Of a DNA stretch of 64,000 nt, positions 9,132 through 64,000 are shown in pieces (the first letter of the stretch is position 1; every line of letters starts with the position of its first letter). A program made the position numbers and the translations under genes. This DNA is from an uncultured Chloroflexia bacterium. Its GTDB lineage: Bacteria > Chloroflexota > Anaerolineae > CG2-30-64-16. A model generated the notes under the pieces. It searched no databases, was not told the origin of the DNA, and saw only the letters and a list, made by a program, of their open reading frames with translations. The stretch spans positions 640,001-704,000 of the forward strand of contig CAWEMM010000012.1 in NCBI GenBank assembly GCA_963810095.1, given 5' to 3'.

Positions 9132-11990
<2,859 letters not shown>

Positions 11991-17541: not shown

Positions 17542-17556
17542 CACTTCTGAAGTGAA

Positions 17557-17929: not shown

Positions 17930-18016
17930 CTTCTTTGAGGTTCTACGTGCGGAGCGAGCGGCTTCTTGATAACCAGGAAGCCGCTCGCTGACATTTAAGA
18001 CACTAGCCGTCGACCG

Positions 18017-18331: not shown

Positions 18332-18469
18332 CTTGTTTCTCCCCTCCGACTGTCTGGGTGGTCTGGTCGTCCAACCCGACTACGGCTGCATCATAGCAGG
18401 GAGGACTCACGCAGTCATTGGGGGAAACACCTAGATTATTGTCCTTGGGGTACGCAAACTTTCCGGACG

Positions 18470-45982: not shown

Positions 45983-45995
45983 CCCATTTCTTCAA

Positions 45996-46077
45996 CACAA
46001 AGACACGAAGACACAAAGTTTGCAGGCCTTCTCGAGGTATCCACCTTCGTGCGCCGTTGTGTCTTCGTGTCTTTGTG
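45996..46077. repeat. Family B palindromic repeat
   Basis: Perfect 21-bp inverted repeat cacaaagacacgaagacacaa / ttgtgtcttcgtgtctttgtg with 8-nt periodicity. Confidence 0.85.
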
Positions 46078-46220
46078 GCAAATGAGTCCTCGCATTAAAA
46101 GCATTCACCCGCACTCCCTCGCGCTTTCATGCGTTGTTCATATTGCAGGGTTACCCTACGCTTGACCTACAAGGCGCTGTCCTCGGTTAGGGTGCCCACT
46201 TCACGTTCGGAGTTCTCCCG

Positions 46221-47947
46221 ATGAAAGCACGAAACGCTCACAGGCGGAGTTTCGCCGTCCTGCTTCTCGTCGTGGTCTTGATCGCCACGCTCGCTGTCGT
46301 CCTGGGTAGCCCCGCCGGCTCGCCCGCCAGCGCGGCGCGCGCCGCTGGGACCCGCTGCGCCCCTGGTGTCATCCAACGGTTGGACACAGGTCTTCTCCGT
46401 GCCGCCCTACCCCAACGGCGCGGAGTTTCACTTCTACGGCATGACGTTCTCGAGCCGCACCACCGGCTTTGCCTACGGCGGCGACACGTGGGACCCTCAG
46501 ACTAATCCGGGCCGGGTGTATCGCACGAAGGACGGCGGCGCGACGTGGGAATTGGTGCTGCAGAACAACGGCTGGAAGATCGGCATGGCGTGTACCGACG
46601 AGCTGCACTGCTGGGTCGGCGGGCGCTACGGGCAGATCTACTACACCAACGATGCCGGCGATCACTGGCTGAGCGCAAGCGAGTACACGTGGCAAGGAAT
46701 TGACGATTATCCGACGCCTCCCGTCCAGACCCCGGTTCCGTTTGCCAAGTGGATCCGCTCGGCGGGTGTGGCTCCGAACGGCAACCCGGTCGTTTTTGGC
46801 GCAACCGACAACACCATTCTGCACTCGAAGGACGGCGTCAACTTCTACAACTACTGGCCCATGTTGGGCTGGTGGTCGGCCACCTGGTCGGTAGCCTGCC
46901 CCACGAGCACCATCTGCTATGGCGGCCAGATCAACCGCTTCATCGTGAAGTCGACGGACGGCGGCGATACCTGGACCATGCCGGCCTACGCCAGCGACGC
47001 GACGCACCAACTGCCTGGCGGACAAATATCCGAATCCCGATCCGGACCTCCAGGGCGGTATTCAGCGCCGGTACTACGGGTTGGCGTTCCTCGACGAGAA
47101 TTACGGGTGGGCCGTGGGCAGCTGCGGGATGATTTTCCGTACCCGTAACGGTGCGGCCAGCCGCTGGGAGCGGCAGATGCCCACCCTGTCAGAGGAAGTT
47201 CAGCTGCGCCGTGTCGAGGCGTTCAGCACCAAGAGCGCGATCACGGTGGGCGGTCAGAATCCGAACCCGGCCGAGCCAAGTGAGGCGCAAAATGCGCTCA
47301 TCTTTCGCACGACGGACGGCGTGAACTGGAGCCCTGTAACTGCGCCCGACACGAGCGAGTTGCACGGCTTGGCCGCGTTCGCGGATGCAACGTTCGTGGC
47401 CGACTGGTCGGGCAAGGTGTGGCGCTGGGACGGCGAGCTCGTGCCCGTTCCACAAGCCACCAATACCCCGACAGCCACGCCGACGGAGACCCAGACGCCG
47501 ACTCCGACTGCCAGCGCGACACCCACCGAGACGCCCGCCGTCACGCCAACCGCCACCTCAACCGAGATTCCGACCACGGGCAGCATCGAGGCGTTCGCGT
47601 TCTATGATGCGAATCTGAACAACAAGCCCGACCAGGGCGAGGCCCCACTGCCTGGCGTCGGCTTCACGCTTTCGACCGATGAGGTCACCGTCGCGACCGG
47701 TGTAACTGGGGTAGACGGCCGCTATGTGTTCGTCAACCTGCAGCCCGGCTCATACGAGGTCGCTGAGACCACGCCACCGCAGGGCTACACGCCCGTGCGG
47801 GTCACCCTCCTCGTCGCGGTCGCGGCAGGTTCGGGACCGGTCTTGCCTTTCGCACATACCATGAGCACGGTGACGCCCTACCCGAGCGCCACGCCGACGG
47901 GCGCCGCGCTCCCCATGCGGACGTGGCTCCCGATGCTGGTGCGCTGA
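46221..47947 (+). CDS. Secreted Ycf48/BNR beta-propeller protein with SdrD-B-like domain (frameshifts near 46365 and 47010-47080)
   Basis: T.DGG.TW repeats; PT linker; FYDANLNNKPDQGEAPLPGV...GRYVF.NL.PGSY; C-terminus WLPMLVR. Confidence 0.75.
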
Positions 47948-48194: not shown

Positions 48195-48398
48195 ATGATG
48201 TACGTTGTGACTGTTGATGTCGCCAAGTGCGAAGCCTGCGGCGACTGCATTGATGCATGCCCGTCGGAGCTCATGGCCCTGGTCGAGGAAGAAGGCAAGA
48301 AGTATGCCATGTTCAAGGGCGACCCCGACGACTGCATCGCCTGCTATTCGTGCGAGTCGACCTGTAACGAAGGCGCAGTGACTGTCACCGAGGTCTGA
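48195..48398 (+). CDS. 2x[4Fe-4S] ferredoxin
   Basis: CEACGDCIDACP and CIACYSCESTC; GGAGG RBS. Confidence 0.92.
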   Translation: MMYVVTVDVAKCEACGDCIDACPSELMALVEEEGKKYAMFKGDPDDCIACYSCESTCNEGAVTVTEV

Positions 48399-48481
48399 TC
48401 GGGCTGACCGGTCGCTTTTCGTGTAATGCAAAATGCGGGCTTGCGCCCGCATTTTGCGTTACAAGCAGCCGTTGCCCCGGC

Positions 48482-49963
48482 CTACGCGGCCAGCGCGGGC
48501 GCAGCCGCACCCGACGACTCGGGCGCCCGCACCCCGCGCAAGGCCAGCACCGACACCAGGAACATCACGCCGAAGATCCCAAACAGCAGGACGTAACCGG
48601 CGCCGGGCACGCCCGGCAGCCGCAGCGTCACGTAATCGGCAATGGGGCCGCCGATGTACGCGCCGACCGCGCCCGCACCCGCACCCGCCAGGTTCGAAAT
48701 CCCCAGGTACTTCCCTGCCTCCGCACCGGGCACGATCCGGGTGCCCAGCGCCCAGTTGGCCGTGAAGAAGAACCCCGTCGCAATGCCGATCAACGTGCCG
48801 CCGATGTAGATCACCGTCATGTTGGGCGCGAGCAGGGCAATGAGCACCCCGAGCGCAGCGACGACCCCGCTGATCTGGAGCAGCCGCTTGTGCCCGAAGC
48901 GGTCGCCCAGGAACCCGCTCGGGATGGCCGCGATGAGGATGAAGACGCCGATTACCGTCATCAGCAGGGCCGCCGGCCCCGCCGCCTTCTCCCGCTCGAG
49001 CCCCAGCCGGCCCTGCAGGAAATAGATCGCAAAGGTCGACAGGTTGGTTGTGCCGACCAGGAACGCCAGGCGGCTGACGACCCACCAGGTGAACGACGGG
49101 TTGGCCTGCGCGGCCCGGTTGCCGATGCTGATGCGCACGCTGACCCAAACGCCGATGGCGACCGCGACCAGCATGGCCGCGATCCCGATCAGTCCCATCA
49201 GCGGCATGAGTGTTAGCGCCGAGTCGAGCGAGCCGAACGGGCCTGCCAGTTGCTTCACGGCCCAACCCAGGCCGAGGATGATGGCGGTGAAGACGGCCGT
49301 CATCGCCAGCAGCCGCAGGATCGAGCTCCAGTCAAACGGAGGCGCGTCTTCGCGGCTCAGCGGCCGCTCTTGCACCAGCATGGTCAGGAGCATGGAGACG
49401 AGCAGGATCACCGCTGCCAGCCCCAGCGCGGCCCACAGGTTGCCCCCGGCAATCAGGCGTGCGATGGTAAATGAGACCAGGATCAGGGGGATCGGGATTT
49501 CAAGCACCGCTTTGATGGCCGAGGCCCGCCCGCGCTTCTCGTCGGGCACAATGTCGGGGATGAGGCCCTGCTGTGCGCCGTGCGCGGTGTTGGCGGCGAC
49601 CGACTGCAGGATAGCGATGACGAAGAGGAACCAGAAGCCCGCCATCCCGAGCATCCCCGCCGAGACGCCGGTCAGGCCGATGAAGACGAGCATCCCCAGC
49701 GTCCCCACGAAGATGAAAGGCCGTCGCCGGCCGATCGGGGAGGTGTTCCGGTCGGAGAGCATGCCCATGACCGCCTGCCACAGCAGCGCGACCATGAGGC
49801 TCCACAGCCGCAGCTCGCCCAGGCGGGTGCCCTTGGTCGCTTCACCCACGAAGTTCTGCACCAGCAGGGGGAACACGAGACCGTTGGTCTGCGAAAGGGT
49901 CGTGAGCGCGAGGAAGAAGATGTTGATGGTGATGTAGTCGTACCAGCGCAAACGCCGCGTCAT
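48482..49963 (-). CDS. MFS transporter (GPH/SLC45-like)
   Basis: GMLSDRNTSPIGRRRPFI, LIPDIVP, GFLGDRFGHK. Confidence 0.88.
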   Translation of the reverse strand: MTRRLRWYDYITINIFFLALTTLSQTNGLVFPLLVQNFVGEATKGTRLGELRLWSLMVALLWQAVMGMLSDRNTSPIGRRRPFIFVGTLGMLVFIGLTGVSAGMLGMAGFWFLFVIAILQSVAANTAHGAQQGLIPDIVPDEKRGRASAIKAVLEIPIPLILVSFTIARLIAGGNLWAALGLAAVILLVSMLLTMLVQERPLSREDAPPFDWSSILRLLAMTAVFTAIILGLGWAVKQLAGPFGSLDSALTLMPLMGLIGIAAMLVAVAIGVWVSVRISIGNRAAQANPSFTWWVVSRLAFLVGTTNLSTFAIYFLQGRLGLEREKAAGPAALLMTVIGVFILIAAIPSGFLGDRFGHKRLLQISGVVAALGVLIALLAPNMTVIYIGGTLIGIATGFFFTANWALGTRIVPGAEAGKYLGISNLAGAGAGAVGAYIGGPIADYVTLRLPGVPGAGYVLLFGIFGVMFLVSVLALRGVRAPESSGAAAPALAA

Positions 49964-50010
49964 GGGGCCTCCTTGGCTCGAGGAGTCGGGGGGAGGGCGG
50001 ACGGGGAACG

Positions 50011-50241
50011 CTATCCCCCTCCCATCGGTGGGTAGAATTCTATCACATCCCGGTCTGTCACCGGGGGGTGATCCCACTGCGCCAGCCGGCGGTTGACCGC
50101 AATCACGGCCACTTCGGCGGGGGGCACGCCCAGTCGGGCCGCGAGGTCGCCCAGGGAGACGGGTTGCGGCTGAGCCAACTCCAGCCAGTCCCGCTTCTCC
50201 CTGTCATACCAGCTCAGGTGTCCACCCAGATGTACGCGCAT
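50011..50241 (-). CDS. moaD: MoaD/ThiS sulfur carrier
   Basis: 76 aa ubiquitin-like protein ending PPMGGG; directly after aor. Confidence 0.85.
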   Translation of the reverse strand: MRVHLGGHLSWYDREKRDWLELAQPQPVSLGDLAARLGVPPAEVAVIAVNRRLAQWDHPPVTDRDVIEFYPPMGGG

Positions 50242-50247
50242 GGATGA

Positions 50248-50342
50248 GAATGGGACGCAGATTGAACTGATCGAACTGATTTTGCCGATTTTTTAGTCGA
50301 ATCATGGGGATCAGTTGAATCAGTCTAATCAGCGTCCTATTC
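50248..50342. repeat. Family A palindromic repeat, copy 5
   Basis: gaatgggacgcagattgaactgatcgaactgat...atcagttgaatcagtctaatcagcgtcctattc; overlaps the aor stop codon. Confidence 0.88.
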
Positions 50343-52267
50343 AGTGCCTCCCGTGGCAAGCTTCTCTGCAGCCCAGCCGATGCCGAGCGCTTCCAGCCGT
50401 TCGCGTGTGGGAATGCCGGTCTCCGTGTCCCAGCCCTTGATTTCATACAGGTCGGTCAGCGCGCGCTCGAAGTCTTCGCGGGGGTATGCGACGCCGGCCA
50501 GCGCGCCCCCTTCCAGCGGCTGGAACAGCCGCTCGGGCAGCGTGTCGTCCTGCCGGGTGCGCCCCTCCCGGGCATTGAACACCCGGGCGAGGTTATTGGC
50601 GCGCTCGCCGATCCGCATCAGCTCGTCCAGCGTGACATCCCAGCCCGGTGGCCGCATGCACCGTCTCCACCACGTCGGGAATCGCGATGAACGAGCGCGG
50701 CGCGGGCCCGAAGTAGCACAGCCCGCTCGTCTTGCCCCAGTTGTTCCAGTGCTCCATCAGCGTGTAGTACTCGACCTTGCGCCGGCTGAGGTCGCGCGGG
50801 GCCAGCGGCTCGGTCACGCCCAGCGGCTCGACGCCCTTGAACTGGAGGGAGTCCGGGTTGGCCAGCACGGGGTCGTGGAATGCCGTCAGGTGCTCGGCGC
50901 CGGTCTCGGAGGTGGCATATGACAAGCCCACGCCCACCTTGCCGCGCGGCTCGTGCATGGCCAGCTCCTGCCCCTTCACCTGCATGGCAAAGAGCGGTGC
51001 GTCGCCCCCGATCGCTTCCGCGGCCCGCTTGCTCCCTTCGGCCAGCAGGTTGCCGATGCCCTCCCGGCGCCCGATCAGCTCCACGCAGCGGACCATGGCC
51101 GGGGCGTTTCCGAAGCGGAGGTCGAGGCCGCCCGTGTCCTCCAGCCCAATCAGCCCGTGCTCGAAGCATTCCATGGCGAATGCGACGGTGGCGCTGCACG
51201 AAATCGCGTCCATCGTGAAGCGGTTGCACAGCTCGTTGGCCTTCGCCACGGCCTGCAGGTCGTCGATGCCGCAGTTGGAGCCGAAGCCGGCGACCGCCTC
51301 GTACTCGGGCCCGCCGTAGTTGTCGCTCACCTGGTACGCGGTCGCCGGCTGCGCCGCCGACCTTCACTTCGCGCTTGCAGCGCACCGCGCACGCGTAGCA
51401 GCTGCGCCGGGCGCTCAGGATCTCCTTCTCGTAGGCTTCCCAGCGCAGGTTGTCGACGCCCTCGAACCCGCCGCTGCGGAAGTTGCGGGTGGGCAGGATG
51501 CCCCCGGCGTTCAGCCCCCCGGTGAGCCCCGGCGTGCCCTTCACCTGCAGGTCCCAGCTCAGCGGGTTCTCTTTGACCTCTTTGGCAAGCTTCTTGCCGA
51601 AGTTCGCGATCCACGGCCCATCTTCCGCCATGTCGACGTAGCGCGTGCTGCCGCGCACGGCGACGGCCTTCAGGTTCTTCGACCCCATGACCGCGCCCAT
51701 GCCCGTGCGCCCGTTGAAATGGCGCAGGTCGTTCGTGATCGCTGCGAACCGCACGCCCTTTTCGCCGGCCTCGCCGATCTGCAGCACGCGGACCAGCTTA
51801 TCGCCCAGCTCGCCGCGGATGGTCGCCTGGGCTTCCTCCGGCTCGCGGCCCCACAGGTGCTCGGCCGGGCGCAGCTCGACCTGGTCGTCCTTGATCCACA
51901 GGTACACCGGTCGCTCGGCCCGCCCCGTGATGACCACGGCCTCCCAGCCGGCCATCTTGAGCTCGGGGCCCCAGAACCCCCCGGCCTCCGACTCGCCGTA
52001 GCCGTCCGTCAGCGGCGACTTCCCGATGGCCGTGAAGCGGGTGGCGGTGGAAAAAGGCGCGGCGGTCAGCAGTCCGTTTGCCAGGATCAGGATGTTCTCG
52101 GGGCCCAGCGGGTCGACATGTGCGGGCAGTTCTGATAGGAGCAGGTAGGCGCCGAGCGCTTTGCCGCCCGGGTACATGCGATAAGTCTTTTCGTCGAGGG
52201 TCTGCGTAGCGATTGAGCCGCTCGCCAGGTCGACGCGTAGGATTTTTCCGGTGTAGCCAAATGGCAT
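50337..52267 (-). CDS. aor: W/Mo aldehyde:ferredoxin oxidoreductase (frameshifts near 51340 and 50655)
   Basis: GYTGKILRVDL, KSPLT, GRTGMGAVMGSKNLKAV, CYACAVRC, GPEYE, VKGQELAMHEPR, DDTLPERL. Confidence 0.93.
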
Positions 52268-52281
52268 GATTGAGCCTCGGT

Positions 52282-53080
52282 TTATGAATGGTGCGGGTCG
52301 CCGGCGACGGGCTGCCCGAACTGGCGCGCGAGGAACCGGCGGGTGGCTTCGAAAAGCTCCCCGCGTTCGCAGTCGAGCGCCACGCAGTGCGTGGACCGGT
52401 CGAGCCAGAGCAGTTCCTTATCGGTCGAGCCGACCCGGTCGTAAATCTCCTGCGGCGCGGCCGGGTCGACCGTGCGGTCCAGCCGGCCGTGGACGATGAG
52501 GATCGGCTGGCGGATCTCGGGCAGCAGCGGGCGCACGGCAGCCTGCAGGCGCAGCAGTTCCCGGATGCCCCGTGCCGGCCGCACGTCGTATCCTTGCCAA
52601 AGCGCATCGGACTCGGCGGGCGCGCCGGGCTTCGGATGCACCATCACGTCGAAGGGCGCGAGCGCATACGCGGCCCGTTCCTGGAATGAGCTGATGGCGA
52701 GCTTGAGCGCGGGCGCGTACGAGAGCACCGCCGCAATCTCCGGGTGGGTCGCCGCCAGGTGCAGCGTCAATGCCGCGCCCGTCGACTCGCCGCCAACCGC
52801 AACCCGGCCGCAGCGGGTCTTCAGTGCCACGTACGACGGCTGTGACGGCCCGCAGCCAATCGCGCCAGCCGTAGTGCCCGAGGTCTTCCGGCTCCGTGCC
52901 GTGCCCGGGCAGCAGGGGCGCAGAGACGGTGTAGCCCGCCGCGTGCAGGTTTTCCGCCAGCGGCCGCATCTCCGCAGTCGTCGCGGTCAGCCCGTGCACG
53001 AGCAGCACGCCGTCCGGCCCCCCGTCCAGGCAGAAGGCGTCGCCGGGCAGGTGGTCGTTGACAAGAAGTCTCTTCGACAT
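52282..53080 (-). CDS. Alpha/beta hydrolase, carboxylesterase/monoacylglycerol-lipase-like (frameshift near 52835)
   Basis: LLVHGLTAT, LPGHGT, nucleophile elbow GESTG, HGRLDRTV, STH. Confidence 0.85.
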
Positions 53081-53091
53081 GCAGGATCCTT

Positions 53092-53162
53092 ACCACTAAG
53101 ACACAAAGAACCGAAGACGCACGAAGTGATTGTGCAACTTCGTGTCTTGGTGTCTTTGTGGT
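53092..53162. repeat. Family B palindromic repeat
   Basis: accactaagacacaaaga...tcttggtgtctttgtggt. Confidence 0.8.
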
Positions 53163-53174
53163 TAGTCGGACGAC

Positions 53175-54092
53175 TTATGGCAGCCACTTCTTTGCCAGCC
53201 GGCATACCATCGTGTAGGCCGGGTCGTAGACGTTGCCCAGGTCGTAGTCCACGCACTGGCCCAGGAGGATGCTCGCCTCCTGCATGGTGAGGCCGTAGTC
53301 GGCGGTCAGCCAGCGGAGCATTTCGGTCGTGGCGTGCTGCAGGGCCTGGTCGAGCGGCCGGGCGTTGCCAACCGTGAAGATGTGCTCCGCATTCTCGCCC
53401 CTGGGCCACCGAACCGGCGCGTGCGCCTCCTGGCCCTTGATCACCCGGAGGCGGAACTCGACCTCGAACGAAATCTCGATCCCCGTTCCCACCACCTCGC
53501 CGTCGCCCTGCACCGCGTGCCCGTCGCCGATGAAGAAAAGCGCGCCCGGCACCGCAACGGGGAAGTATGCGGTCACGCCCGCACAGAAGCCCCGGTAGTC
53601 CATGTTGCCGCCGTGCGGTCCGGCCGTGGACGTGGAGATGGCCTGGCCGCCGGCGGGCGCGACGCCGAAGCAGCCCACCATCGGCGCAAGCGGCAGGGCC
53701 AGCCGGCCGAGCTTGGGGAACGGCTCCTGCGGCGTGGCACAGCCGGCCGCTGCGTCGACGTCCCAGATCAGCGTTTCGGCCTCGGGCAGCGAGGCGACAA
53801 AGCTCGGATCGACCACGCCGGGCGCGACGACGTCACGGGTGAAGCCGGTCGGCCGGTTGGGCGCCAGGCGGATGAGATCGACGGCCAGGGTATCGCCGGG
53901 CTCGGCCGGCTCGACATAAAAGGGACCCGTCTGCGCGTTCGGGCGGCCGCCAGCAAGCTGGCCGTGGTGGTCCCAGCCGTGCGCGTCGATGGTCGTGGTC
54001 ACGACCGTATCGCCGTCGGCGACCGTGAGAACGGGCGGATGCGAGCCGAGCGTGTTGTAATAGCGGGTTGGTGCGAAGTGATGAGTCGTCAT
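53175..54092 (-). CDS. Acetamidase/formamidase family protein
   Basis: TGPFYV..AEPGD, HGGNMD, GDGHAVQGDGEV.GTGIE. Confidence 0.9.
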   Translation of the reverse strand: MTTHHFAPTRYYNTLGSHPPVLTVADGDTVVTTTIDAHGWDHHGQLAGGRPNAQTGPFYVEPAEPGDTLAVDLIRLAPNRPTGFTRDVVAPGVVDPSFVASLPEAETLIWDVDAAAGCATPQEPFPKLGRLALPLAPMVGCFGVAPAGGQAISTSTAGPHGGNMDYRGFCAGVTAYFPVAVPGALFFIGDGHAVQGDGEVVGTGIEISFEVEFRLRVIKGQEAHAPVRWPRGENAEHIFTVGNARPLDQALQHATTEMLRWLTADYGLTMQEASILLGQCVDYDLGNVYDPAYTMVCRLAKKWLP

Positions 54093-54096
54093 AACA

Positions 54097-55379
54097 CTAG
54101 CGTAACACCGGGATTGTGGCGTTGGCAAATGGCATGACGCCAATGCGCGCGCCGGATGGCAGGCGGGCCAGCGCCTCGTCCACGGCCTGCTGGAGCGAAG
54201 GGGCGGGGTTCAGCAGCAGGCGCTCGGCCAGGCTGCGGTCCATGTCTGACACGAACGTAAGGCGGACGCGGGCCGCGTCGCGTGCGATCTGCCACGCCTT
54301 GTGCGGGCCGATCCGGTAACCCTCCGCCGCATAGCGGTCGAGCACCTGCTCGTGCGTCGTGAAGCCGCCGTCGAGCATCCAGCGCTCGTAGGCTGCGCTG
54401 CCCGTGCCTTCCCCGCAGGCCGCGGCCAGGATCACTGCGCCGCTCAGAGCGGGAACCAGCCGGGTCACCAGGGTGGCGTGCGCGAGGGCCTTTTGCGCCT
54501 GGTACAGGTTGATGTCCTTCGGATGGCCGCCGGGCGACACGATGACCAGGTCGAACGGGCGGCTGACTTCCACCGCGTAGATGGCGCGCAGCAGGGGGAT
54601 GCCCGCCTGCATCACGTCGACCGGGCGCCCGGCCAGGACGTGCGCGATCTGCTTGTGGTCATTCAGGATCGCGTTGAGCGCGTAGTCCACCCCGATCAGC
54701 CGCCCGATCTCTTCGACATCCTGCCGGCAGGGGTTGTCCGCGTAGGAGTTGATCTCGGCGCCGGCCGCGGTCATCATGGCATGGTTCGTGTTGATGGTGG
54801 CCTTCGCCGTCAGGCCCACCGCCGCGCTCTTGACCCCGCCCGAGAAGCCCATGAACTGGTGCGGCTCGATGTTCCCCACGACCACCCGCAGGTCCGCCTC
54901 CCACCAGCGCCGGTTGACGCTGACGGGCGTGCCGCGGGCCGTCTCGCCGAGGTAGATCAGCTCGCCGTCCGCATTGCAGTCGTGGCTGTACACGGGGTAG
55001 CGGGCGAGGATCTCGGCCGGCAGGATGGCCGGGAATTCCTCGGGCGGCATGGGGGCGTGGGTGCCGGTCGCCACCAGCAGCGTGATGTTCTCGGGGAGGA
55101 ACCCGAGCCCTTCGAGCCGGGCGAGCAAGGGCGGCAGAAGGTAGCGGTGGGGGACGGGCCGGGTCTTGTCGTTAACCGCGACGACAGCCCTCCGCCCTCG
55201 GTTCGTGGGCAGGGGCGCGGCGTCCAGGGCCGCCTCGACTGCCGCCAACGGATCGGGCGAGGGCGCGGCCTCGCGGGGCGCGAGCAACTCCACCCGGCGT
55301 CCAGCGCGGCGGGCAGGTCGAACTCGACAAATCCTTTCCCGTAGGGAAGCTGGTAGCGGGTCAACGGCGCCTCATGCAA
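54097..55379 (-). CDS. larA: LarA-family nickel-pincer-nucleotide hydroxyacid racemase (frameshift near 55295)
   Basis: LPYG, NDKTRP, ATGTH, IEPHQFMGFSGGVKS, NH, GGHPKDINLYQAQKA. Confidence 0.88.
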
Positions 55380-56485
55380 ACAGCCGGATCAGCAGCAGGC
55401 TAAACAGCGCCAGGCAGCCGCCCACGGCAAAGCCGAGCGCGAGCGGCTTGAGCCCGGTGCGCCGGATGCTCGCGGCGTTGGTGCTCAGCCCGATGGCCGA
55501 GAGGGCGAGCAGGATGCAGAGCTTCGTCACCTCGTCCAGCAGCTTCAGCACGTTGGCGGCGGCTACCAGGCTGCCCGGGTCGTTCACGTTGACCGGTGTG
55601 AAGCCGAGCGCGTTGCCGAGCGACCGGACCAGGCTCATGCCGACGAAGCCGAGCACGAACCAAGGCACGATCTTGCCGATCGACAGCTTGACCGACGCAT
55701 CCCGCTTCTGCTGCGCCCGGGCGTACACCAGCCCGATGCCGAGGATCAGCGGGGCCATGAGCGTGTTGCGCACGAGCTTGACCACCGTCGCAACGTCGCG
55801 TGCCGCGTCGCTGAACGCCGCGCCCGCGGCCACCACCTGCGACGTGTCGAGGATCGCAGTGCCGGCCCACAGCCCGAAGATCCGGTCGCTCATGCCCACC
55901 AGGTAGCCGAACGTGGGGTAGAGCAGCACGGCCAGCGTGCCGAAGAAGGTGATGGTGGCGACCGCATAACTCACATCCTCGTCCTCGGCCTCGATGACCG
56001 GGGCCGTCGCAATGATGGCGGAGTTGCCGCAGATGGCGGTGCCGACGCCGATCAGCGCGGCCAAGCCGGGGGCGGATACGGAGGGCGCGCCCCAGCAGGT
56101 AGGCGAGCGACAGGGCAAAAGCCACGCACGCGAGCACCAGCAGCAGCGCAGACCCGCCGATGTTGATCACGTCCTGGAAGCTGAGCCGCACGCCCAGCAG
56201 GATAATGCCAAAGCGCAGGATGCGGGTCAGAGCGAACTTGATGCCCGGCTCGAAGCGGGCGGAAAACCCGATCGCGTTGCGGACGAAGAACCCGAGCAGC
56301 ACCGCGATGAAGACTTCGCTCACCGCCCGAGCGATCTCGGGCGAGGGGATCAGCCCGTGCAGGTAGCGCGCGATGAGCGCCACGGCCAGCACCAGGAACA
56401 GGCCCGGCAGGGCAGGGCGCAGCTCCGCGCCGATCTTGCGGAGCTCGGCAACAAGTGGATTGACGTGCGTTGTAGGGGCGATCAT
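55372..56485 (-). CDS. YeiH / putative sulfate(sulfite) exporter family protein (frameshift near 56075)
   Basis: LRFGIILLG, GTAICGNSAI, GTAILDTSQVVAAG, KLVRN, PWFVLGF. Confidence 0.88.
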
Positions 56486-56496
56486 GGCAGCTTCCC

Positions 56497-56561
56497 GACC
56501 TTCGGGGTTTCGACCGCGAGCAACCTGACCGGGTCAGGCGCTCGGTGAAACCCCGAAGGTC
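56497..56561. repeat. REP-like palindrome
   Basis: gaccttcggggtttc...gaaaccccgaaggtc with an internal cctgac/gtcagg hairpin. Confidence 0.7.
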
Positions 56562-56576
56562 TCGGATTGGAGCGGG

Positions 56577-58086
56577 TTACGCGCTCTCGTAGAGCTTCGT
56601 CAGGACGAACTCGTCGTGGCGCAGGGCCTCGGCGGCGGTGAAGCGGCCGTTGATGGTGTGTTCCAGCACCTCCATCGCCTTGTCGGCGCCCTCGTCCAGG
56701 TTGATCTCGATGCGGAGGAGCCCGGTCAGGTCCACGTCGATGTGCTCGGACATCGTCGCGACGGTCAGCGGGTTCGCACACAGCTTGATGACGGGGATGA
56801 TCGGGTTGCCGATGATGTTGCCCTGCCCCGTGGGGAAGTAATGGACGACCGACCCGGCTGCCGCGCACAGGGTGACCATTTCGGCCGCGGCCGACGACGA
56901 ATCCATGAAGTGCAGGCCCGGGCCCTGGGGCTCCACGGCCTTGTCGAGCACGCCCACGACGGTGCAGCGCCCCATCTTCTGGATGTTGCCCATGGCCTTC
57001 TCTTCGATGGTGGTCAGGCCGCCGCGGATGTTGCCTTCGGTCGGCTGCGAGCCCAGCAGGTCGACGCCCTTGCTCTTCACGAGCGCCTGGTAGTCGTTGA
57101 AGAACTGCATGAACCCGTCGGCCACTTCCTGCGTCGCGCACTGGTTGGCGATGATGTCCTCGCCGCCCGTGACCTCGGTCGTCTCGCCGAAGATGAGGGT
57201 TGCCCCAGCGTCCGCCAGCCGCTCGAACACCCGGCCGACCGTGGGGTTCGCCGCCAGGCCCGACGTGGTGTCCGACTCGCCGCACTTGGTGCTCATGCAC
57301 AGCTGGTCGACGGTGAACGGCTCGCGCTGCAGCTCGGTGGCGTACTGCACGAACTCCATGGCCTTGCGCGCCGCCATCTCGATGGTCTTCAGGTCGCCGT
57401 AGCGCTCGATGCTGAACCCGGCGACCGGCTTGCCCGTCTCGGCGATCGCATCGACCACCCGCTGCGTCCACTTCGGCTCGATGCCGATGACGATGGCCGC
57501 GGCCACGTTCGGGTTGCGCCCGGTGCCCGCCAGCGTGCGGAAGGTCAGCTCGAGGTCCTCGCCGAACTGCAGCCGGCCGTATGGGTGCGGCAGGGCCATC
57601 GTGCCCTTGATCAGGCTGGCAACGCCGTTGGCGGCGGCATTGGAGATGTCGTCGATCGGCAGGATGATGACGTGGTTGCGGACGCCGAAGCGGCCGTCCG
57701 GGCGCTTGTAGCCCAGCAGCTTCATTTCCTCCGGCTTCTTGCCGCCCAGGGCCAGCCGCTCGGTGTGCTTCTGGACGATTTCCGGCGCGGGCGCCTCTTC
57801 CAGGCTCCACGCGCATCGTCTTCAGGTTTTGCGTGTGGACGTGGCCGCCGCAGGGGATGGCCGCAGTCGTCTGGCCGATCGTGCGCCCGTACTTGAGCAG
57901 CTTGTGCCCCGCCGGCATGTCGCGCATCGCAACCTTGTGGCCCAAGGGCACGTCGTTCACGACCTTGAGGCTGCCGTGCTCCTGCCCCTCCAGCGTGACG
58001 ACGCCCACTTCCTCGCCCGCGTGCAGGTCGCGCACCGCCACGCCGACATCGTCGATGAGTTCGTGAATCAGGATTCCGTGTGCCAT
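56577..58086 (-). CDS. suyAB: (2R)-sulfolactate sulfo-lyase SuyA (SAF domain) plus SuyB, probably one fused ORF with a 1-nt error near 57810
   Basis: SAF domain DVPLGHKVA..KYG..HVHTQN; SuyB signatures LPIDDISNAA, HPYGRLQFGEDLEL, KCGESDTTSG, SQPTEGNIRGGLTTIEEKA, MDSSSAAAE, EFVLTKLYESA. Confidence 0.9.
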
Positions 58087-58113
58087 GATGAGTGCCTTTC
58101 GTAAACGGGATTG

Positions 58114-58206
58114 GAATGGGACTCAGTTAACTGATCAAACTGATCGACCTGATCTTTCTTGAATATCATGAAGATCAGTCCGATCCGTTCGATCTGTGTC
58201 CCATTC
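58114..58206. repeat. Family A palindromic repeat, copy 6
   Basis: gaatgggactcag...gatctgtgtcccattc. Confidence 0.85.
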
Positions 58207-58214
58207 TGCGTTCT

Positions 58215-59431
58215 CTACAAGTCGATCCCGTTTTCGCGGAGCAGCTCGTCGATGAGCACGGGCTGCCCGGTCTTGACCGATTTTTCGGCCGCCGCGCCGA
58301 CGACGATGGACCAGAAGCCCTCGGCGGCTGTGGCCGCTGTCCTTGGCGCACCGTCGATGTTGTCCACAAAGCTGACGTGCTCGAAGTAGGTCGCGCCGTG
58401 GTGGCCGCTCGCCTGGATGAAGCCGGGTAGCACGGCGTGCCGATGCGGGTGGGCTTGCGGTCGCCGCACTTGATCTCGATGGTCGTGTCGGGCTGGCCCG
58501 CCGGCAGGAAGTCCTCGTTCTCCGACACCTTCAGCCGGCCGTCGTCGCCGCAGAGCACCATCTCCTCGTAGAACATGGGCGAGAACATGCAGAGGTTGAA
58601 GGTGGCCCGCACGCCGTTGGCGTAGTTGACGATGACGAACGGCGTTGTCGATGATGTCCGACTTTTCGCCCTCGTACTCGAAGTCGAGGAAGTTGACCGC
58701 CGCGCTGCCGCTCGCATACACGCTGACCGGCCGGGCGCCGGCGAACAGGTTCATCAGGTCGAAGTAATGGCAGCACTTCTCGACCAGCGTGCCGCCCGAG
58801 TACTTCGAGAACTTGTTCCACTGCTTCACCTTGTCGAGGAAGGGGAAGCGGTGCTCGAGGATGCTGATCGTCTTGATGTCGCCGATGGTCTTGCGCTCCA
58901 GCGCCTCGTGGATGGCCTCCACGTAGATGGGCTTGAAGCGGTACTGCAGCCCGATCTGGAAGACGGCGGGGTGCCGCTGCGCCATCTGCATGATGGCATA
59001 GGCGTCGCAGACCGTCGTCGCCATCGGCTTCTCGAGCAGGATGTGCTTGCCCGACGCGGCGGCCACCCGCACCACGTCGAGATGCGTGAAGTTCGGCGTG
59101 CAGATGATCAGGCCGTCGACCGCCGGGTCGTTGCACGCCGCTTCGAGCGAGTCGTACACGACCAGCTTTTCCCGCCCGGGCGGAACTGGGCGTGCATCCC
59201 CTGGGCGCCGGCAATGCTCAGCGGGTTCGGGTCGTACACGCCGTGGATGACCGCGCGGCCCTCCATGCCCGTCACCCGGATGTGCTCCTGCCCGTTGACG
59301 CCCGTTCCGATCACGTTGAAGCGGTAGCGCTCCTCTGCCGGTGCGAAGAGGTAGCGGTCTTCGGCCGGGATGTACGCGAAGACGGGGCTCCGCGCAAAGA
59401 CCTGGTTGCGGAATTCTTTACCGATTGGCAT
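58215..59431 (-). CDS. Gfo/Idh/MocA-fold protein, probable NAD+-dependent sulfoquinovosidase (GH188, SqgA-like); several frameshifts
   Basis: IGTGVNG, LEKP, GLQYRF, HRFPFLDKVKQWNKF..SGGTLVEKCCHYFDL, GHHGAT; located in a sulfoglycolysis operon. Confidence 0.75.
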
Positions 59432-59446
59432 AGCGTTATCCTCGAC

Positions 59447-60111
59447 TTATTCGTACGGCGTCTTGTCCCAGAAGCTGCAGAACCGCTTCAGCCCCTCGTC
59501 CGTCCACGGGTGCTGGACCATGCCCTTGTACACCGCGAGGCCCGCAGGTCACGATGTCCGCCCCGGCCACGGCCGAGTCCACGATCTGCCGGCCGTTGCG
59601 CACCGCACTGACGATGATCTCGGTCGGGAACTCGTAGTTGTCGCGCATCATCACGATTTCCTGGATGAAGCGCACGGTTTCTTCGCCGGTCTCTTCCTTC
59701 CAGCCGATGAAGGGCGAGACGAACGTCGCGCCGAGCCGCATGGCCTGCAGCGCCTGGCTGCCCGAGAAGACGAGGGTCAGGTTGACGCGGATGTTCTTCG
59801 GCCCGCAGGCCGCGCAGCGCCCGGAACCCGGGCTCGGTGGCGGGCAGCTTGATGACGAAGTTGGGGCTGAGCGCGGCCAGCTTCTTGCCCTCGGCCACCA
59901 TCTCGCGCCAGTCGTCGTAGTGCGGGTTGACCTCGACCGACACCGGCAGGTCTGTCCCCTTGAAGATCTCCGCGATCTCCTTGATCACGACCATGAACGG
60001 CTTGCCCGAAGCCTGCACGTGCCGGGGGTTCGTCGTCACGCCGTCGATCCCCACCATCTCCAGCGCGTACGTGATCTCGTCCGTGATCGCGCTGTCCAGG
60101 AAGAACTTCAT
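59447..60111 (-). CDS. sftT: Sulfofructose transaldolase (frameshifts near 59800 and 59540)
   Basis: MKFFLDSA, DGVTTNPRH, Schiff-base VIKLP, SPFIGWKE, VRNGRQI. Arg in TNPRH, Trp in GW and Arg in RNG match my recollection of the sulfonate pocket in Bacillus SftT/SqvA. Confidence 0.85.
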
Positions 60112-60248
60112 CCTTGCCTCCGAATGTGTGTCGTCGCCCGCGGGACCAATGTCGAGGCTACCACAAGGTGCCCGATGACATGGCTTCACAAAGCTCTGCA
60201 ACTATCGCCTGGCTTCCGTTTGTCTGTGTCTTTGTGTTAAAGTCATGT

Positions 60249-61197
60249 CTACCTGCCGCCGAAGCCCGTCGTTGCGACGCCCTGCACGAAGTAGCGCTGG
60301 GCGAAGACGAACACGATCAGGATCGGGATGAGCACCGCCGTCGACGCCGCGAACAGCAGCTCCCAGTTCCCCGTCATCTGCACGTCGTTGAGCGCGCGCA
60401 AGCCGAGCGCCAGCGTCCAGTTTTGCCGGCCGTTGATGTAGATCAGCGGCTGCAGGAAGTCGTTGTAGCTCTGCAGGAACGCGAACACCGCCACCGTCGC
60501 GATGACCGGCTTGGACAGCGGCAGGATGATGTTGAAGAGGATGCGGACGCGGCTTGCGCCGTCGACCAGCGCGGCTTCCTCCAGCTCCATGGGGATGGTC
60601 TTGAAGAACTGCCGCATCAGGAACACGTAGAGCGGCGCCAGCGCCAGCCAGAACGGCACGGTCAGCGGCAGGTAGTTGCGCGGCAGGTCGAACAGCGTGC
60701 CCGGCAGGTCGAGCACGTTGCCCGGCTTCGTCCAGCCAAGCGTCCTGAACTCGATGAACATCGGGATCATCGTGATGATCTCGGGCAGCATCATCGTGCC
60801 GAGCAGCATGCCGAAGAAGAAGTCGCGGCCGGGCCAGCGCAGCCGGGCGAACGAGTAGGCCACCAGCGACGACGACAGCACCACGCCCAGCACGGTCAGG
60901 AGGGAGATCTTGAAGGTGTTGACCGCAAACGTGGCGAAGGGCAGCAGCTGCCATCGCGTCGGCGTAGTTGCGCCACTGGGGCACGGCCGGGATCCACACG
61001 ATCGGGTTGGCGAAGATCTCGGGCTGGCTCTTCAGCGACGAAGAGACCATCCACAGCGTGGGGCCCAGGAACGTGAGCAGGATCAGCGTCATCAGGACCT
61101 GCAGGCCGATGATGCCCAGCCGGTCCATCGTCTTGCGCCGCGATTTGGCGGCCGCGTATTTTTCGGTCTCGACCGTTGGCGTGGCAGGGATGTCCAT
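60249..61197 (-). CDS. Carbohydrate ABC permease (MalG-like), frameshifted
   Basis: AYSFARLRWPGR, EAA motif ELEEAALVDGA, LPLSKP. Confidence 0.9.
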
Positions 61198-61206
61198 GGG
61201 GCGCTC

Positions 61207-62118
61207 CTACGACTCGTAATACACCCAGCGGCTCGACACGTAGAACTGCGACGATGGTCAGGCCGATGACGATGATGAAGAGCTCCCACGCCAGCGCGGA
61301 AGCGTAGCCCATGTTGAAGAACTGGAAACCGTTCCGGTAGATGTTGAGCACGACGAACAGCGTCGAGTTTTCCGGCCCGCCGTCGGTCATGATCAGCGCG
61401 GGGACGAACGTCTGGAACGAGTTGATGATCGCGATGATCATGTTGTAAAAGATCAGTGGCGTCATCAGCGGGACGGTGATCTTGAGGATCGAGGTGAACT
61501 TGCTCGCGCCGTCGATCTGCGCGGCTTCCTGCAGCTGGACCGGGATGTTGCCGAGGCCGGCGATAAAGATCACCATCTGGCGGCCGATCATCCAGAACGA
61601 CATGAAAGATGAAGGCGGGCTTGGCCAGCTCGGGCTTGAGCAGCCACGGCTGTGCCGGGATGCCCACCCAGCCGAGGATGGTGTTCAGGATGCCGAAATC
61701 GGGGTGCAGCACCCGCTGCCACACGACGGCCGTCGCGACGACAGGGATGATGATGGGCAGGTAAAAGCCCGCCCGGTACATCGCCCGGAACTTGAGCGGC
61801 TGGGTCAGCGCCAGTGCCAGCGAGAAGGAGATGACAAGCTGGAACGGCACGGCAAAGAGGGTGTAAATCGCGCTGTTCACCAGCGCCTTGCGCGCCAGCT
61901 CGTCGGTGAACACCCGCGTGATATTCGCCAGCCCGGCGAACAGCCGGCGGCGAGAGCAGGTCCCATTTCTGAAACATCAGGTAAATGGAGTAGAGCATGG
62001 GAAATGCGACGAAGGCGAAAAAGCCGATCAAGAACGGCGCAGCAAACAGGTAGCCTTGCAGCCATTCGCGGCGCTGAAATGACGACACGCGGCGCCTGGG
62101 TTGCGTTACAGCGGCCAT
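61207..62118 (-). CDS. Carbohydrate ABC permease (MalF-like), frameshifted
   Basis: GYLFAAPF, QEAAQIDGA, ITVPLMTP, MGYASALAW. Confidence 0.9.
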
Positions 62119-62136
62119 GCCGTACCTCCCGAAGCA

Positions 62137-62254
62137 GAATTGGACTCAGATTGAACTGATCTGACTGATTTGCCTGATCCTTCACCCTGGGCTGGCAGGG
62201 TAATCACGAACAAGATCAGGTGATCAGTCCGATCAGTCCAATCTGCGTTCTATT
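62137..62254. repeat. Family A palindromic repeat, copy 7
   Basis: gaattggactcagattgaactgatctgactgat...atcagtccgatcagtccaatctgcgttctatt, between the binding-protein and permease genes. Confidence 0.85.
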
Positions 62255-62257
62255 GCA

Positions 62258-63674
62258 CTATGCGCCGAGCGCGGCGTTCAGCTTCTCGTCGACCTGCGGG
62301 AAGACCTCGGCCGGCTTGGCGCTGCCGTTGTTGATCTTGTCCCATGCGGTCGGCTTCACGACCTCGGACCACATCTTCGAGCGCGGCACGTTGGCGCTGA
62401 CCACGTCGATCTGGCCTTCCTTGAACGCATCGAGGAACGCCTGGCCGTTCTCGATCTGGTACAGCTCCTTGGTGCGCGGCACCCACCAGCTTTGCGCCAG
62501 GTCGAGGTTCGACGGGATGCGGCCGGTGATGGTGGAGTACTGCTTGTTGCCTGCTTCGCTCACCAGGAACGCGGCGAACGCCCAGGCGGCCTCGGCCAGG
62601 TCGGTCTTCGGTGACCGCGACGCCTTCGCCCCAGCCGCGATGCGGCCGGCCCGAAACGTTGGGGGTCTTGGGCATGAGCACCACGTCGAAGGGCACTTCC
62701 TTCTTCTGCTCGCGCAGCTTCGGGCTGTTGAGCTGGGGCAGGAACCACGGCCCTTCGTACTTCATGGCGCACTTGCCGGTGTTGATCGTGTTCGCGCCGG
62801 ACGTGTCGGCCGGGCTCGGCGCGACCTTCCAGGTGTGGGGCATGTCGTAGGAGGTCGTGGTGATGCGGTCCACGATCTCGGGCTGGTTGAACATGGCCTT
62901 CTTCGGGTCGATGATCGTGTCGAACTCGCGCTTGCCCGTGCCGACGATCCAGCCGATGTCGCGGTACCAGTTGCCGTTGACCTGGTAGCCGAACAGGCCC
63001 TTGCCCGCGTCGGTCAGCTTCTTGGCCGTCTCGACGAACTCGTCGAACGTCCAGTCGGTCTTCGGGTAGGCCACGCCGGCGTCGTCGAAGATCTTCTTGG
63101 CGTAGAACATGATCATCGTCGCGGCCTGCAGCGGGATGAGGAAGGTCTTGCCGTTGCGCTTCGTGCTCTGCTCGACGCTGGTGTAGCCCGAGGGGTAGAC
63201 GTTGGTCACCTTGTCGCGGGTGATCCAGTCGTCGACCGGCTGGAGCAGGCCCTTGTCCGCATAGGCTTGCCACTCCCAGCCCTGGAAGGAGGCCAGGTTG
63301 GGCGGCGTGCCGCCGGCGAACATGGTCTGCAGCTTGGTGTAGTAGTTGGCGTTAGGGTCGGCAACCGGCGTGATGTTCACCACGTTCCCGGTCAGCTTGG
63401 TGTACTCGGGCCCCAGCACTTCCCAGGCCGGGACCGTCGGTCGTGTCGCCCCAGGCGAGGAACTCGATCGGGGCGAGCGCTGCCCTTCGCCGCAGGTGCG
63501 GCAGTCGGGGCGGCTGCGGCCGGCGCGGTGGTCGCCGCGGGCGCAGCCGTGGGGGCGCTGCGGCCGGTGCGTGGCCTGCTGGCCGCCGCATGCGGAGAGC
63601 AATGCGGCCGCCGCCAGGCCCCCGCCGCCCAGCTTCAGGAACTCGCGGCGGGACAACTTGGTCTGCTTGGACAT
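62258..63674 (-). CDS. Sugar ABC substrate-binding lipoprotein, Tat-exported (frameshifted)
   Basis: SRREFLK twin-arginine motif, LLSAC lipobox, KLQTMFAGGTPP, DWTFDEF, GPWF. Confidence 0.88.
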
Positions 63675-63748
63675 GTGCCTTTCCCTCCCTGGGTGGTGTT
63701 GAGATCGCGTCGTGGGGCCCGTGCGCAGCACGCCGCCTCATGACAGGA

Positions 63749-63799
63749 GTTGACTTACGACAGGCGTTGACCTACGACAGCTGTTGACTTACGACAGGC
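63749..63799. repeat. Three 17-bp tandem units spanning the isomerase stop codon
   Basis: gttgacttacgacaggc / gttgacctacgacagct / gttgacttacgacaggc. Confidence 0.8.
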
Positions 63800-64000
63800 G
63801 CAGCACGGGCAGGTCGAGCAGCCGCGCCAGCGCCAGCAGGGCGTCCAGGTGGTCGCCGTAGGTCAGGGAGATGTGGTGGTCCAGCCCTTCGGTCATGATG
63901 GTGTCGAAGCACCTCTTGGGCCGGGCGGTCGAACCGGATGCACGCCGGACGTGCCCGTGTAGCTCATCGGCGCGTGCTGCATTTCGCCCGCCGCCACGAC
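63789..64000 (-). CDS. L-fucose/L-arabinose isomerase family protein, C-terminus only; probable sulfoquinovose isomerase
   Basis: Manual translation (not in the ORF track): GEMQHAPMSYTGTSGV...TIMTEGLDHHISLTYGDHLDALLALARLLDLPVLRLS*; upstream of the transaldolase operon. Confidence 0.65.
   Translation of the reverse strand, partial: RGGGRNAARADELHGHVRRASGSTARPKRCFDTIMTEGLDHHISLTYGDHLDALLALARLLDLPVLRLS

Follow-up and report, generated by a model that had tools for sequence, protein, structure and literature searches.

An Anaerolineae operon predicted to convert sulfoquinovose to pyruvate and sulfite, with AOR- and LarA-type genes in its lower branch

Sulfoquinovose (SQ) is produced on a gigaton scale. 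The DNA analysed here is a stretch of 64,000 nucleotides (C12:640001-704000, in its full length referred to as the window) from an uncultured bacterium of the class Anaerolineae, whose metagenome-assembled genome (MAG) comprises 6.13 Mb on 16 contigs, with a completeness of 88.5% and a contamination estimate of 4.8%. The last 15.8 kb of the window hold an operon in which predicted genes for the uptake and cleavage of SQ stand together with a putative sulfolactate sulfo-lyase (SuyAB), a LarA homologue and a gene of the AOR family. This operon is a real, conserved and biologically coherent variant of the extended sulfo-transaldolase (sulfo-TAL) pathway. It probably encodes the entire route from SQ to pyruvate and sulfite within a single cell, with the frame changes that interrupt most of its genes being errors of the assembly; all enzyme functions named in the following are predictions from sequence comparison.

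Gene content of the locus

As the window has a G+C content of 65%, its raw lists of open reading frames (ORFs) are crowded with spurious frames. Genes were called from the G+C content at the codon positions, from Pfam searches with 43 ORFs and from Pfam searches with 104 minus-strand stop-to-stop pieces, the latter being all such pieces of at least 35 amino acids between 47.7 kb and the window end. One string of minus-strand genes, with a few to about 100 nt between neighbours, was found at the end of the window. Read from position 64000 downwards, its Pfam matches are a fucose-isomerase-like C-terminus, a solute-binding protein (SBP), two BPD permeases, TAL_FSA, GFO/IDH/MocA, a SuyA-like protein with GD_AH (SuyB), PF03601 (YeiH), Lar_N/LarA_C, FmdA_AmdA, Hydrolase_4, AFOR_N/AFOR_C, ThiS/MoaD and MFS. 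An earlier reading of the letters without database searches (the sequence-only reading) had given this gene list, order and orientation, and all of it is present as listed, including a convergent ferredoxin on the plus strand. It had also stated correctly that the operon continues past the window edge, as only the last ~70 codons of the isomerase gene lie inside the window and the gene runs on beyond 64000. The features are as follows, with the evidence for each in brackets.

63789..64000, minus strand: SftI-like sulfoquinovose isomerase, 3′ end; frame change near 63923 (Pfam, NCBIfam, tblastn)
62258..63680, minus strand: solute-binding protein (SBP_bac_1/8, TAT-like signal), split over two frames near 62608 (Pfam, tblastn)
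61210..62145, minus strand: ABC permease 1 in three frames, ends approximate; changes near 61605 and 61944 (Pfam, tblastn)
60249..61197, minus strand: ABC permease 2 (BPD_transp_1), split over two frames near 60957 (Pfam, tblastn)
59447..60111, minus strand: predicted sulfofructose transaldolase (SftT/SqvA-like), spread over three frames by changes near 59800 and 59542 (Pfam, tblastn)
58215..59431, minus strand: Gfo/Idh/MocA protein of the SqgA kind (GH188, NAD-dependent sulfoquinovosidase); change near 59170 (Pfam, solved-structure match, tblastn)
56577..58086, minus strand: SuyA-SuyB, cut at 57810 by one extra G (Pfam, tblastn, comparison with relatives)
55372..56485, minus strand: membrane protein of the YeiH/PF03601 “putative sulfate export” family, split over two frames near 56065 (Pfam, NCBIfam, tblastn)
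54097..55364, minus strand: LarA homologue, first ~20 codons in another frame; change near 55300 (Pfam, NCBIfam, alignment to 5huq)
53175..54092, minus strand: FmdA/AmdA-family amidase-like protein, intact (Pfam, tblastn)
52282..53080, minus strand: alpha/beta hydrolase (Hydrolase_4, esterase) in two frames; change near 52843 (Pfam, tblastn)
50337..52267, minus strand: AOR-family protein, spread over three frames by changes near 51340 and 50645 (Pfam AFOR_N/AFOR_C pieces, tblastn)
50011..50241, minus strand: ThiS/MoaD-family small protein, intact, its congener copy ending in GG (Pfam ThiS, tblastn)
48482..49963, minus strand: MFS transporter (MFS_1/MFS_2/PUCC-like), intact (Pfam, single tblastn piece with 79% identity to congener)
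48195..48398, plus strand: ferredoxin, 2x[4Fe-4S], 67 aa, convergent, intact (translation, Pfam Fer4_7/Fer4)

Besides its net change near 59170, the SqgA-like gene has a -1 and a +1 change, at 58422 and 58642, that compensate each other.

Import and upper pathway

The enzymes were identified from the intact orthologues of a congener (genome G007), which served as proxies. The orthologue of the transaldolase matches three solved entries of the sulfofructose transaldolase BmSF-TAL at 266-272 bits (8bc3 with 272), compared to 170 bits for the next transaldolase, and the lysine of its FVIK(I/L)P motif aligns with Lys89, which is the Schiff-base residue of BmSF-TAL according to the text of PMC12890257. 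The window encodes the same protein over three frames, with 79-97% identity to the congener in tblastn. For the Gfo/Idh/MocA protein the best solved matches are 8zn9 (228 bits), 8qc2 (214) and 8qc3 (212), followed at a large distance by the next entry with 71 bits; 8QC2/8QC8 are described as FlSqgA and 8QC3/5/6 as ArSqgA (PMC10755693). These matches speak for the sulfofructose enzyme and the GH188-like enzyme that the sequence-only reading had predicted. The isomerase is less clear. Its only NCBIfam match is the SftI model NF048012, covered from position 35 to 440 of 443, and no solved-structure relative was found for it; the score of 258 bits lies well below the cut-off of 700, which counts against the assignment. 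A gene of the SlaB/YihU type was not found, as neither an Aldedh nor a NAD_binding_2 domain occurs among the Pfam-scanned pieces between 48 and 64 kb, where an AOR-family gene is present instead. The upper pathway and the SuyAB assignment discussed below are the parts of the scheme predicted with the most confidence, ahead of the LarA step and, last, the AOR step.

The set of upper-pathway genes varies among relatives. G007 contains an extra ORF of 196 amino acids between SftT and SqgA (L018:13926-14513), which is absent from the window and has no Pfam or NCBIfam match. Class-mates of other families (loci L126, L129, L131 and L140) have GH31 (YihQ-type) or GH4 replacing SqgA in otherwise similar SftT-SuyAB-LarA strings, and in one of these four a TctABC transporter replaces the ABC importer.

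Sulfo-lyase and exporter

The SuyAB protein has the architecture of the UxaA family (GD_AH_second and GD_AH_C in Pfam), with a SAF domain in several fused homologues, and close SuyB homologues are named “(2R)-sulfolactate sulfo-lyase subunit beta” by their source. SuyA and SuyB form one fused frame with a linker of ~27 residues in six of seven relatives, while the seventh has the classical split form; at the junction, the window differs from the relatives by one extra G. The adjoining YeiH-type protein, which reaches 179 bits with TIGR00698 and thereby stays below the subfamily cut-off of 232.6, is proposed to be a sulfite exporter. A Pfam domain search of the 88.5%-complete genome found no NIR_SIR sulfite reductase. 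Respiration of sulfite by this organism is hence not proposed, and the fate of sulfite is one that we infer, which weakens this part of the scheme. Four molybdenum domains of the sulfite-oxidase family are encoded in the genome.

LarA homologue

The LarA homologue of the window scores 469 bits with the NCBIfam model of the LarAH5 “malate racemase” (NF052595), slightly above its cut-off of 462. All nine SuyAB-linked LarAs pass this cut-off, the eight besides the window at 481-535 bits, whereas none of the four other LarA paralogues of the genome does (187-330 bits or not listed). The closest solved structure is the malate racemase Mar2. The residues aligned with the two catalytic histidines, the lysine and the Ni-binding histidine of 5huq are retained in the window. 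In the L. plantarum LarA, His108 and His174 are the catalytic pair, Lys184 tethers the cofactor and His200 binds Ni. Residues R75, K184 and H200 of LarA are named in the text of PMC11770544. For synthesis of the cofactor, contig C2 has larE, larC and an AIRC (LarB-like) domain next to each other (113.5-116.3 kb).

In a quick IQ-TREE search, for which the rows were chosen through SuyAB, 29 SuyAB-linked LarAs form one clade (SH-aLRT 100) that is sister to 16 LarAH5 proteins of the Bacillota type, to which they are 33-40% identical. Among 301 genomes sampled from the Bacillota-type phylum, 15 contain a LarAH5 over the cut-off, and 16 loci (these 15 plus one) were examined. Only two of the 16 adjoin a close SuyAB and two more adjoin a distant gene of the UxaA family, which weakens the idea that the entire LarAH5 family consists of sulfolactate racemases. 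The claim is therefore restricted to the SuyAB-linked clade. Within this clade, it appears likely that the LarA homologue catalyses the racemisation of sulfolactate, although the NCBI model would call it a malate racemase, and the “malate racemase” names carried by members of the clade may consequently be wrong. A suggestive hint, and only this, comes from Desulfitobacterium hafniense, for whose LarAH5 enzyme Mar1 the Km of L-malate is given as 55 mM (PMC7583248), while strain DCB-2 is listed in a review among the users of sulfolactate as electron acceptor.

In total, five LarA homologues are present in the genome. A second one adjoins a second gene of the AOR family outside the window (C12:583785-585519).

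Linkage across genomes

In a DNA search of 40 relatives, two members of the genus (G001 and G007) proved collinear with the window over the entire 15.8 kb locus. Elsewhere in the family, SftI, the ABC importer, SftT, (SqgA), SuyAB, YeiH, LarA, AOR and MoaD are retained with small rearrangements in other genera. The search for conserved synteny that the sequence-only reading had suggested thus turned out in favour of the operon. The amidase and the esterase, which it had listed in the run, did not hold up equally well: the amidase was seen in no loci other than those of this genus and a few close ones, and the esterase recurs more widely, but not constantly.

In a set of 80 SuyAB-related loci from public genomes (one genome per species, neighbours within 10 kb), a LarA homologue is found in 18, SftT (at least 62% identity) in 10 and AOR (at least 71%) in seven; the 18 loci with LarA include two from Verrucomicrobiota and one from Spirochaetales. 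Of 401 genomes sampled evenly from the class, 26 contain SuyAB; this sample overlaps with the set above, and several of its loci lie on short contigs. Apart from the locus studied here, LarA adjoins SuyAB in 19 of these loci, SftT in 13 and AOR in four (n = 25). The LarA clade is present in 40 of the 401 genomes, 23 of which also contain SuyAB, and three genomes have SuyAB and lack LarA.

Proteobacterial SuyAB loci (57-67% identity) are composed of a GntR regulator, SuyA/B, TctC, a D-2-hydroxyacid dehydrogenase, an Ldh_2 protein of the ComC family and YeiH. SlcC/ComC together with SuyAB is the published arrangement for sulfolactate (PMC9594981). In the loci of Anaerolineae, Verrucomicrobiota and Spirochaetales, LarA stands in place of the proteobacterial pair of 2-Hacid_dh and Ldh_2.

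AOR-family protein

The AOR of the window extends over three frames, which together match AFOR_N (profile positions 1-198) and AFOR_C (3-84, 89-304 and 300-385), and it is intact in the congener, whose orthologue has the AOR of Pyrococcus furiosus (1aor) as its best solved match (414 bits). In three related loci an Aldedh gene (PF00171) adjoins the transaldolase or SuyAB at the place where this genus has AOR. On the other side, AOR adjoins SuyAB in only four of the 25 class loci, and the genome contains about seven AOR paralogues. The balance tips slightly towards AOR as the enzyme which oxidises sulfolactaldehyde, with the convergent ferredoxin as a candidate for its electron acceptor.

Proposed pathway

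In the pathway as we propose it, the ABC importer would take in SQ or its glyceride, the SqgA-like enzyme would free SQ, and the SftI-like isomerase would convert SQ to sulfofructose. SftT would then transfer a C3 unit to glyceraldehyde phosphate and leave (S)-sulfolactaldehyde, which a tungsten-type AOR may oxidise to (S)-sulfolactate while reducing the neighbouring ferredoxin, thereby replacing the usual NAD-dependent SlaB. The LarA homologue is predicted to turn (S)- into (R)-sulfolactate by means of its nickel-pincer cofactor and would replace the dehydrogenase pair SlcC/ComC; that a racemisation is needed on stereochemical grounds is stated in PMC12421959 and PMC13436972. Finally, the fused SuyAB would cleave (R)-sulfolactate to pyruvate and sulfite, and the YeiH-type protein would export the latter.

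The logic of this pathway, which the sequence-only reading had put forward, fits with the homologies and, more strongly, with the synteny across several families of the class. Four points around it did not stand in the same way, namely novelty, the amidase and esterase, the integrity of the genes in this assembly and an anaerobic life. Matches in the genome to COX1-type oxidases (three) and to a cytochrome bd oxidase (one) are accompanied by matches to [NiFe]-hydrogenase, and the oxidases lead us to reject a strictly anaerobic cell, although with a contamination estimate of 4.8% this is not airtight.

Frame changes

Most of the operon genes are frame-broken in this assembly, which the sequence-only reading had not noted. 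In total, 14 net frame changes are present in 11 of the 14 minus-strand genes, 13 of them recognised by tblastn of the G007 proteins and one in the 5′ end of larA, and further changes follow in the isomerase past the window edge. Only the amidase, MoaD and MFS genes on the minus strand and the ferredoxin gene on the plus strand read through. In the congeners, the corresponding ORFs are long and uninterrupted (675-693 codons for AOR, 510-528 for the SuyA-SuyB frame). These changes might be real, which would make the operon a recently inactivated relic in this strain, with a working copy in the congeners. In addition to the sheer number of broken genes, this is suggested by the confinement of the changes to ~15 kb which roughly match the operon and its ROK regulator: in a 160 kb comparison with G001, no frame change was found at C12:666-690 kb and four at 624-665 kb, as opposed to ~16 distinct sites at 690.3-705.4 kb (duplicate antisense rows discounted). 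Long essential genes elsewhere are intact, with four tRNA-synthetase genes of the genome being open at 962-1,120 amino acids.

However, the character of the changes argues for a different origin. No in-frame stop was found in 4,792 residues aligned between congener proteins and window, there is no large deletion, and the amino-acid identity to the congeners inside the patch resembles that of its flanks. The 24 kb without frame changes just ahead of the patch and the open tRNA-synthetase genes likewise count in favour of errors. Bacterial gene decay is deletion-biased, whereas the frame-breaking indels, read by eye from the alignments to G001 and G007, amount to ~16 single extra letters against two or three losses and lie mostly outside homopolymers. 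The first broken site is in the 3′ part of AOR and leaves the downstream genes for MoaD and MFS untouched, to which a patch of read length fits better than selection on the unit as a whole.

Independent material comes from metagenome contigs that are 95-99% alike and do not have the extra letter or letters at at least seven of the 14 sites. One letter is absent from them at 57813, 59794, 60949, 61943, 62612, 63910 and 63941, and two at 59166; a letter is also absent at 58638, which belongs to the compensated pair of the SqgA-like gene. These contigs, which have unbroken frames in near relatives, are short, of low depth and from four public metagenome runs; the run search yielded shares of 0.05-0.12 of words in six runs from three studies, from which no habitat is claimed. 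Two limits weaken this evidence and leave room for decay: among the rows listed no contig bears on the other seven of the 14 sites, and the contigs, which come from related populations, differ from the window elsewhere too and so may be other strains. Joints seen in such contigs (e.g., 50281 to 58165) have short sides that are 90% alike; they are treated as the arrangements of other organisms.

Taken together, the frame changes are most likely consensus errors in a patch of ~15 kb, roughly the length of one long read, of a long-read MAG, while true inactivation is rather unlikely. The living organism hence probably possesses an intact operon like its congeners, and checks at the level of reads are needed before the copy in this MAG is counted as pseudogenes.

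Splits of this kind also occur sporadically elsewhere in the genome, which again accords better with errors than with decay of one unit. Two AOR paralogues and one gene of the tRNA-synthetase family are split over two frames (C9:334855-335947, C6:795292-796393 and C6:1172356-1173091) and may reflect a background of frame errors or pseudogenes. G001, which is likewise assembled in few contigs, has splits of its own at the same locus (L017), with the amidase in three pieces, LarA in two and the transaldolase in three, at positions that differ from those of the window.

Alternative readings of the lower branch

It could also be that the downstream half has nothing to do with sulfonates, with LarA being a malate or lactate racemase, AOR a general aldehyde oxidoreductase and the UxaA-family protein a sugar-acid dehydratase, all placed beside a sulfo-TAL cluster that excretes sulfolactate or 2,3-dihydroxypropanesulfonate (DHPS). 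The LarAH5 score and the match to Mar2 fit with this idea, as do the several AOR and LarA paralogues of the genome. Moreover, the SuyAB assignment rests on context and automated names: the only solved and NCBIfam matches of this protein are galactarate or altronate dehydratases, with galactarate dehydratase as the best one at low scores. Also, 17 of the 40 class genomes with the LarA clade do not contain SuyAB at the threshold used. Among 14 of these 17 loci, four adjoin SftT and two are LarA-AOR-MoaD-MFS-esterase strings with neither SftT nor SuyAB nearby. Yet, the proteobacterial homologues stand amid ComC-family and 2-hydroxyacid dehydrogenases and YeiH, that is, in the sulfolactate set published in PMC9594981, and in repeated cases SuyAB, LarA and YeiH share a single string with SftT, SftI and sulfoquinovosidases, the two sets being intermixed. 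The same LarA clade occurs beside further enzymes linked to (2R)-sulfolactate or sulfite, with ComA in one locus and dsr-like genes in two, and the Km of Mar1 does not speak for malate as the substrate. Overall, a lower branch unrelated to sulfonates appears improbable.

Equally doubtful is an arrangement of two independent modules, in which the sulfo-TAL half excretes its product and the SuyAB-LarA half uses imported free sulfolactate without any flux from SQ to sulfite in one cell: 12 of the 25 class loci have SuyAB-LarA without SftT, as do two Verrucomicrobiota loci (one beside dsr-like genes, the other with a transaldolase of only 38% identity), an MFS transporter with no assigned substrate lies within the string, and one congener has its SuyAB-LarA-AOR genes ~36 kb from its transaldolase, but in this genus and at least two other genera of the family all genes form one co-directional string with short spacers, SftT lies directly upstream of SqgA and SuyAB therein, and the AOR or Aldedh of the same string is needed only if the aldehyde is made in the cell. 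The single-cell route from SQ to sulfite is thus preferred over both.

Relation to known systems

Clusters with sulfo-TAL and SuyAB in Thermotogae and Chloroflexi have previously been suggested on bioinformatic grounds to form an “extended sulfoglycolytic pathway” (Wei, Tong & Zhang 2022, PMC9594981, which cites Liu et al. 2020), and further mentions of Chloroflexi sulfo-TAL clusters occur in PMC7491151, PMC12890257, PMC10755693 and PMC10599462. The statement of the sequence-only reading that no description of this gene combination was known has to be corrected accordingly, as the sftT-suyAB core is already known as a prediction. The clusters of Wei et al. share with the present operon the combination of sulfo-TAL and SuyAB in one Chloroflexi cluster and the complete use of SQ carbon, whereas the text of that paper does not contain a racemisation step, LarA, AOR, ferredoxin, tungsten, PF09861, PF01314 or a SuyA-SuyB fusion. 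A full-text search found nothing in print on a LarA-type sulfolactate racemase or on AOR-type oxidation of sulfolactaldehyde, although figures and supplements may already show these genes. This work thus adds the proposed steps of LarA and AOR, along with the SuyA-SuyB fusion.

The sulfo-TAL pathway known from gut Firmicutes and from Bacillus aryabhattai and B. megaterium (PMC7491151) leads to sulfolactaldehyde through a sulfofructose transaldolase, as predicted here, and an SQ isomerase, for which this operon has an SftI-like candidate, but continues with the NAD(H) enzymes SlaB or YihU and the excretion of sulfolactate or DHPS. In the operon studied here, the predicted continuation is AOR followed by racemase, lyase and exporter, and the putative sulfoquinovosidase is SqgA-like instead of GH31. 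Paracoccus wurundjeri (PMC12421959) is described to convert (S)-sulfolactaldehyde via (S)- and (R)-sulfolactate to pyruvate and sulfite in one organism with SlcC/ComC-SuyAB; unlike the present case, this aerobic proteobacterium acts on sulfofucose through an upper pathway of the Entner-Doudoroff (ED) type and has two NAD(P) dehydrogenases acting via sulfopyruvate, separate SuyA and SuyB and a TauE exporter. SlcC/ComC of Chromohalobacter salexigens (PMC9594981, PMC11193023) likewise supply (R)-sulfolactate to SuyAB and hold the same position by SuyAB/YeiH in proteobacterial loci. They are two NAD(P)-linked enzymes with free sulfopyruvate between them, whereas one nickel-pincer enzyme with an internal hydride shuttle is proposed here.

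The LarA homologue belongs to the same superfamily as LarAH5/Mar1 and LarAH6/Mar2 (PMC7583248, PMC11770544) and has the same catalytic and cofactor-binding residues, but it falls in a separate clade, and its proposed substrate carries a sulfonate where malate has its distal carboxylate; the text of both papers does not mention “sulfo”. With the P. furiosus AOR (1aor), the AOR shares AFOR_N and AFOR_C; a ferredoxin gene lies nearby here, and the proposed substrate, sulfolactaldehyde, is a different one.

According to a 2026 review (PMC13436972), complete breakdown of SQ by one organism outside oxygen-dependent routes has not been demonstrated. The clusters described here point to abundant uncultured Anaerolineae of sediment and soil as candidates for complete breakdown of SQ in one organism. 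They further provide two predictions that can be assayed: a sulfolactate racemase that consists of a single enzyme, and an oxidoreductase that couples sulfolactaldehyde to ferredoxin. Should either be true, the scoring of SQ-degrading potential in metagenomes would change, because current screens seek SlcC/ComC and SlaB.

A wider proposal, to which we would give somewhat less than an even chance, is that the SuyAB-linked LarA clade comprises the first nickel-pincer racemase acting on a sulfonate and forms with the tungsten AOR an NAD-independent lower branch. Single cells of Anaerolineae and, by transfer, of some Verrucomicrobiota and Spirochaetales would thereby mineralise SQ completely, while sister clusters would feed Dsr-type reductases or may use a kinase and a reversed phosphosulfolactate synthase in place of SuyAB.

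Related clusters and neighbouring genes

Several loci outside the genus combine the same genes with others. In an Anaerolineae record (L036), a dsrAB-like NIR_SIR pair (16233-18475) follows a cluster of GH31, SftT, fused SuyAB, LarA and YeiH, and in a locus of Verrucomicrobiota (L050, 2874-9783) SuyAB-LarA adjoins NIR_SIR, NrfD and DsrMK-like genes. Both hint at cells that respire the sulfite which they themselves release from sulfolactate. A class-mate (L167, ~5262-10673) has no close SuyAB; there, a member of the same LarA clade stands in a row with ComA ((2R)-phospho-3-sulfolactate synthase, PF02679), SftT, GH4 and an APH-like phosphotransferase. Desulfonation might take another route in this case, with (R)-sulfolactate being phosphorylated and ComA reversed to yield phosphoenolpyruvate (PEP) and sulfite. 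Another string without SuyAB (L166, 5131-14468) is composed of AOR, SftT, GH4, LarA, the pyridoxal-phosphate (PLP) enzyme PALP and a sulfatase, and here the PLP enzyme may take the place of the lyase step.

Past the window edge, a frame-split regulator of the ROK family is located upstream of the isomerase (L022:5142-6085), as is also conserved for SftI in several relatives, and a type I restriction-modification methylase (HsdM) lies farther on (L022:11262-12629). On the other side, just before the ferredoxin, the plus strand of the window encodes DUF4340, BNR-like and SpaA/SdrD-B-fold proteins (44990-47944), none of them related to the operon; in locus L162, this DUF4340 gene adjoins the LarA-AOR string.

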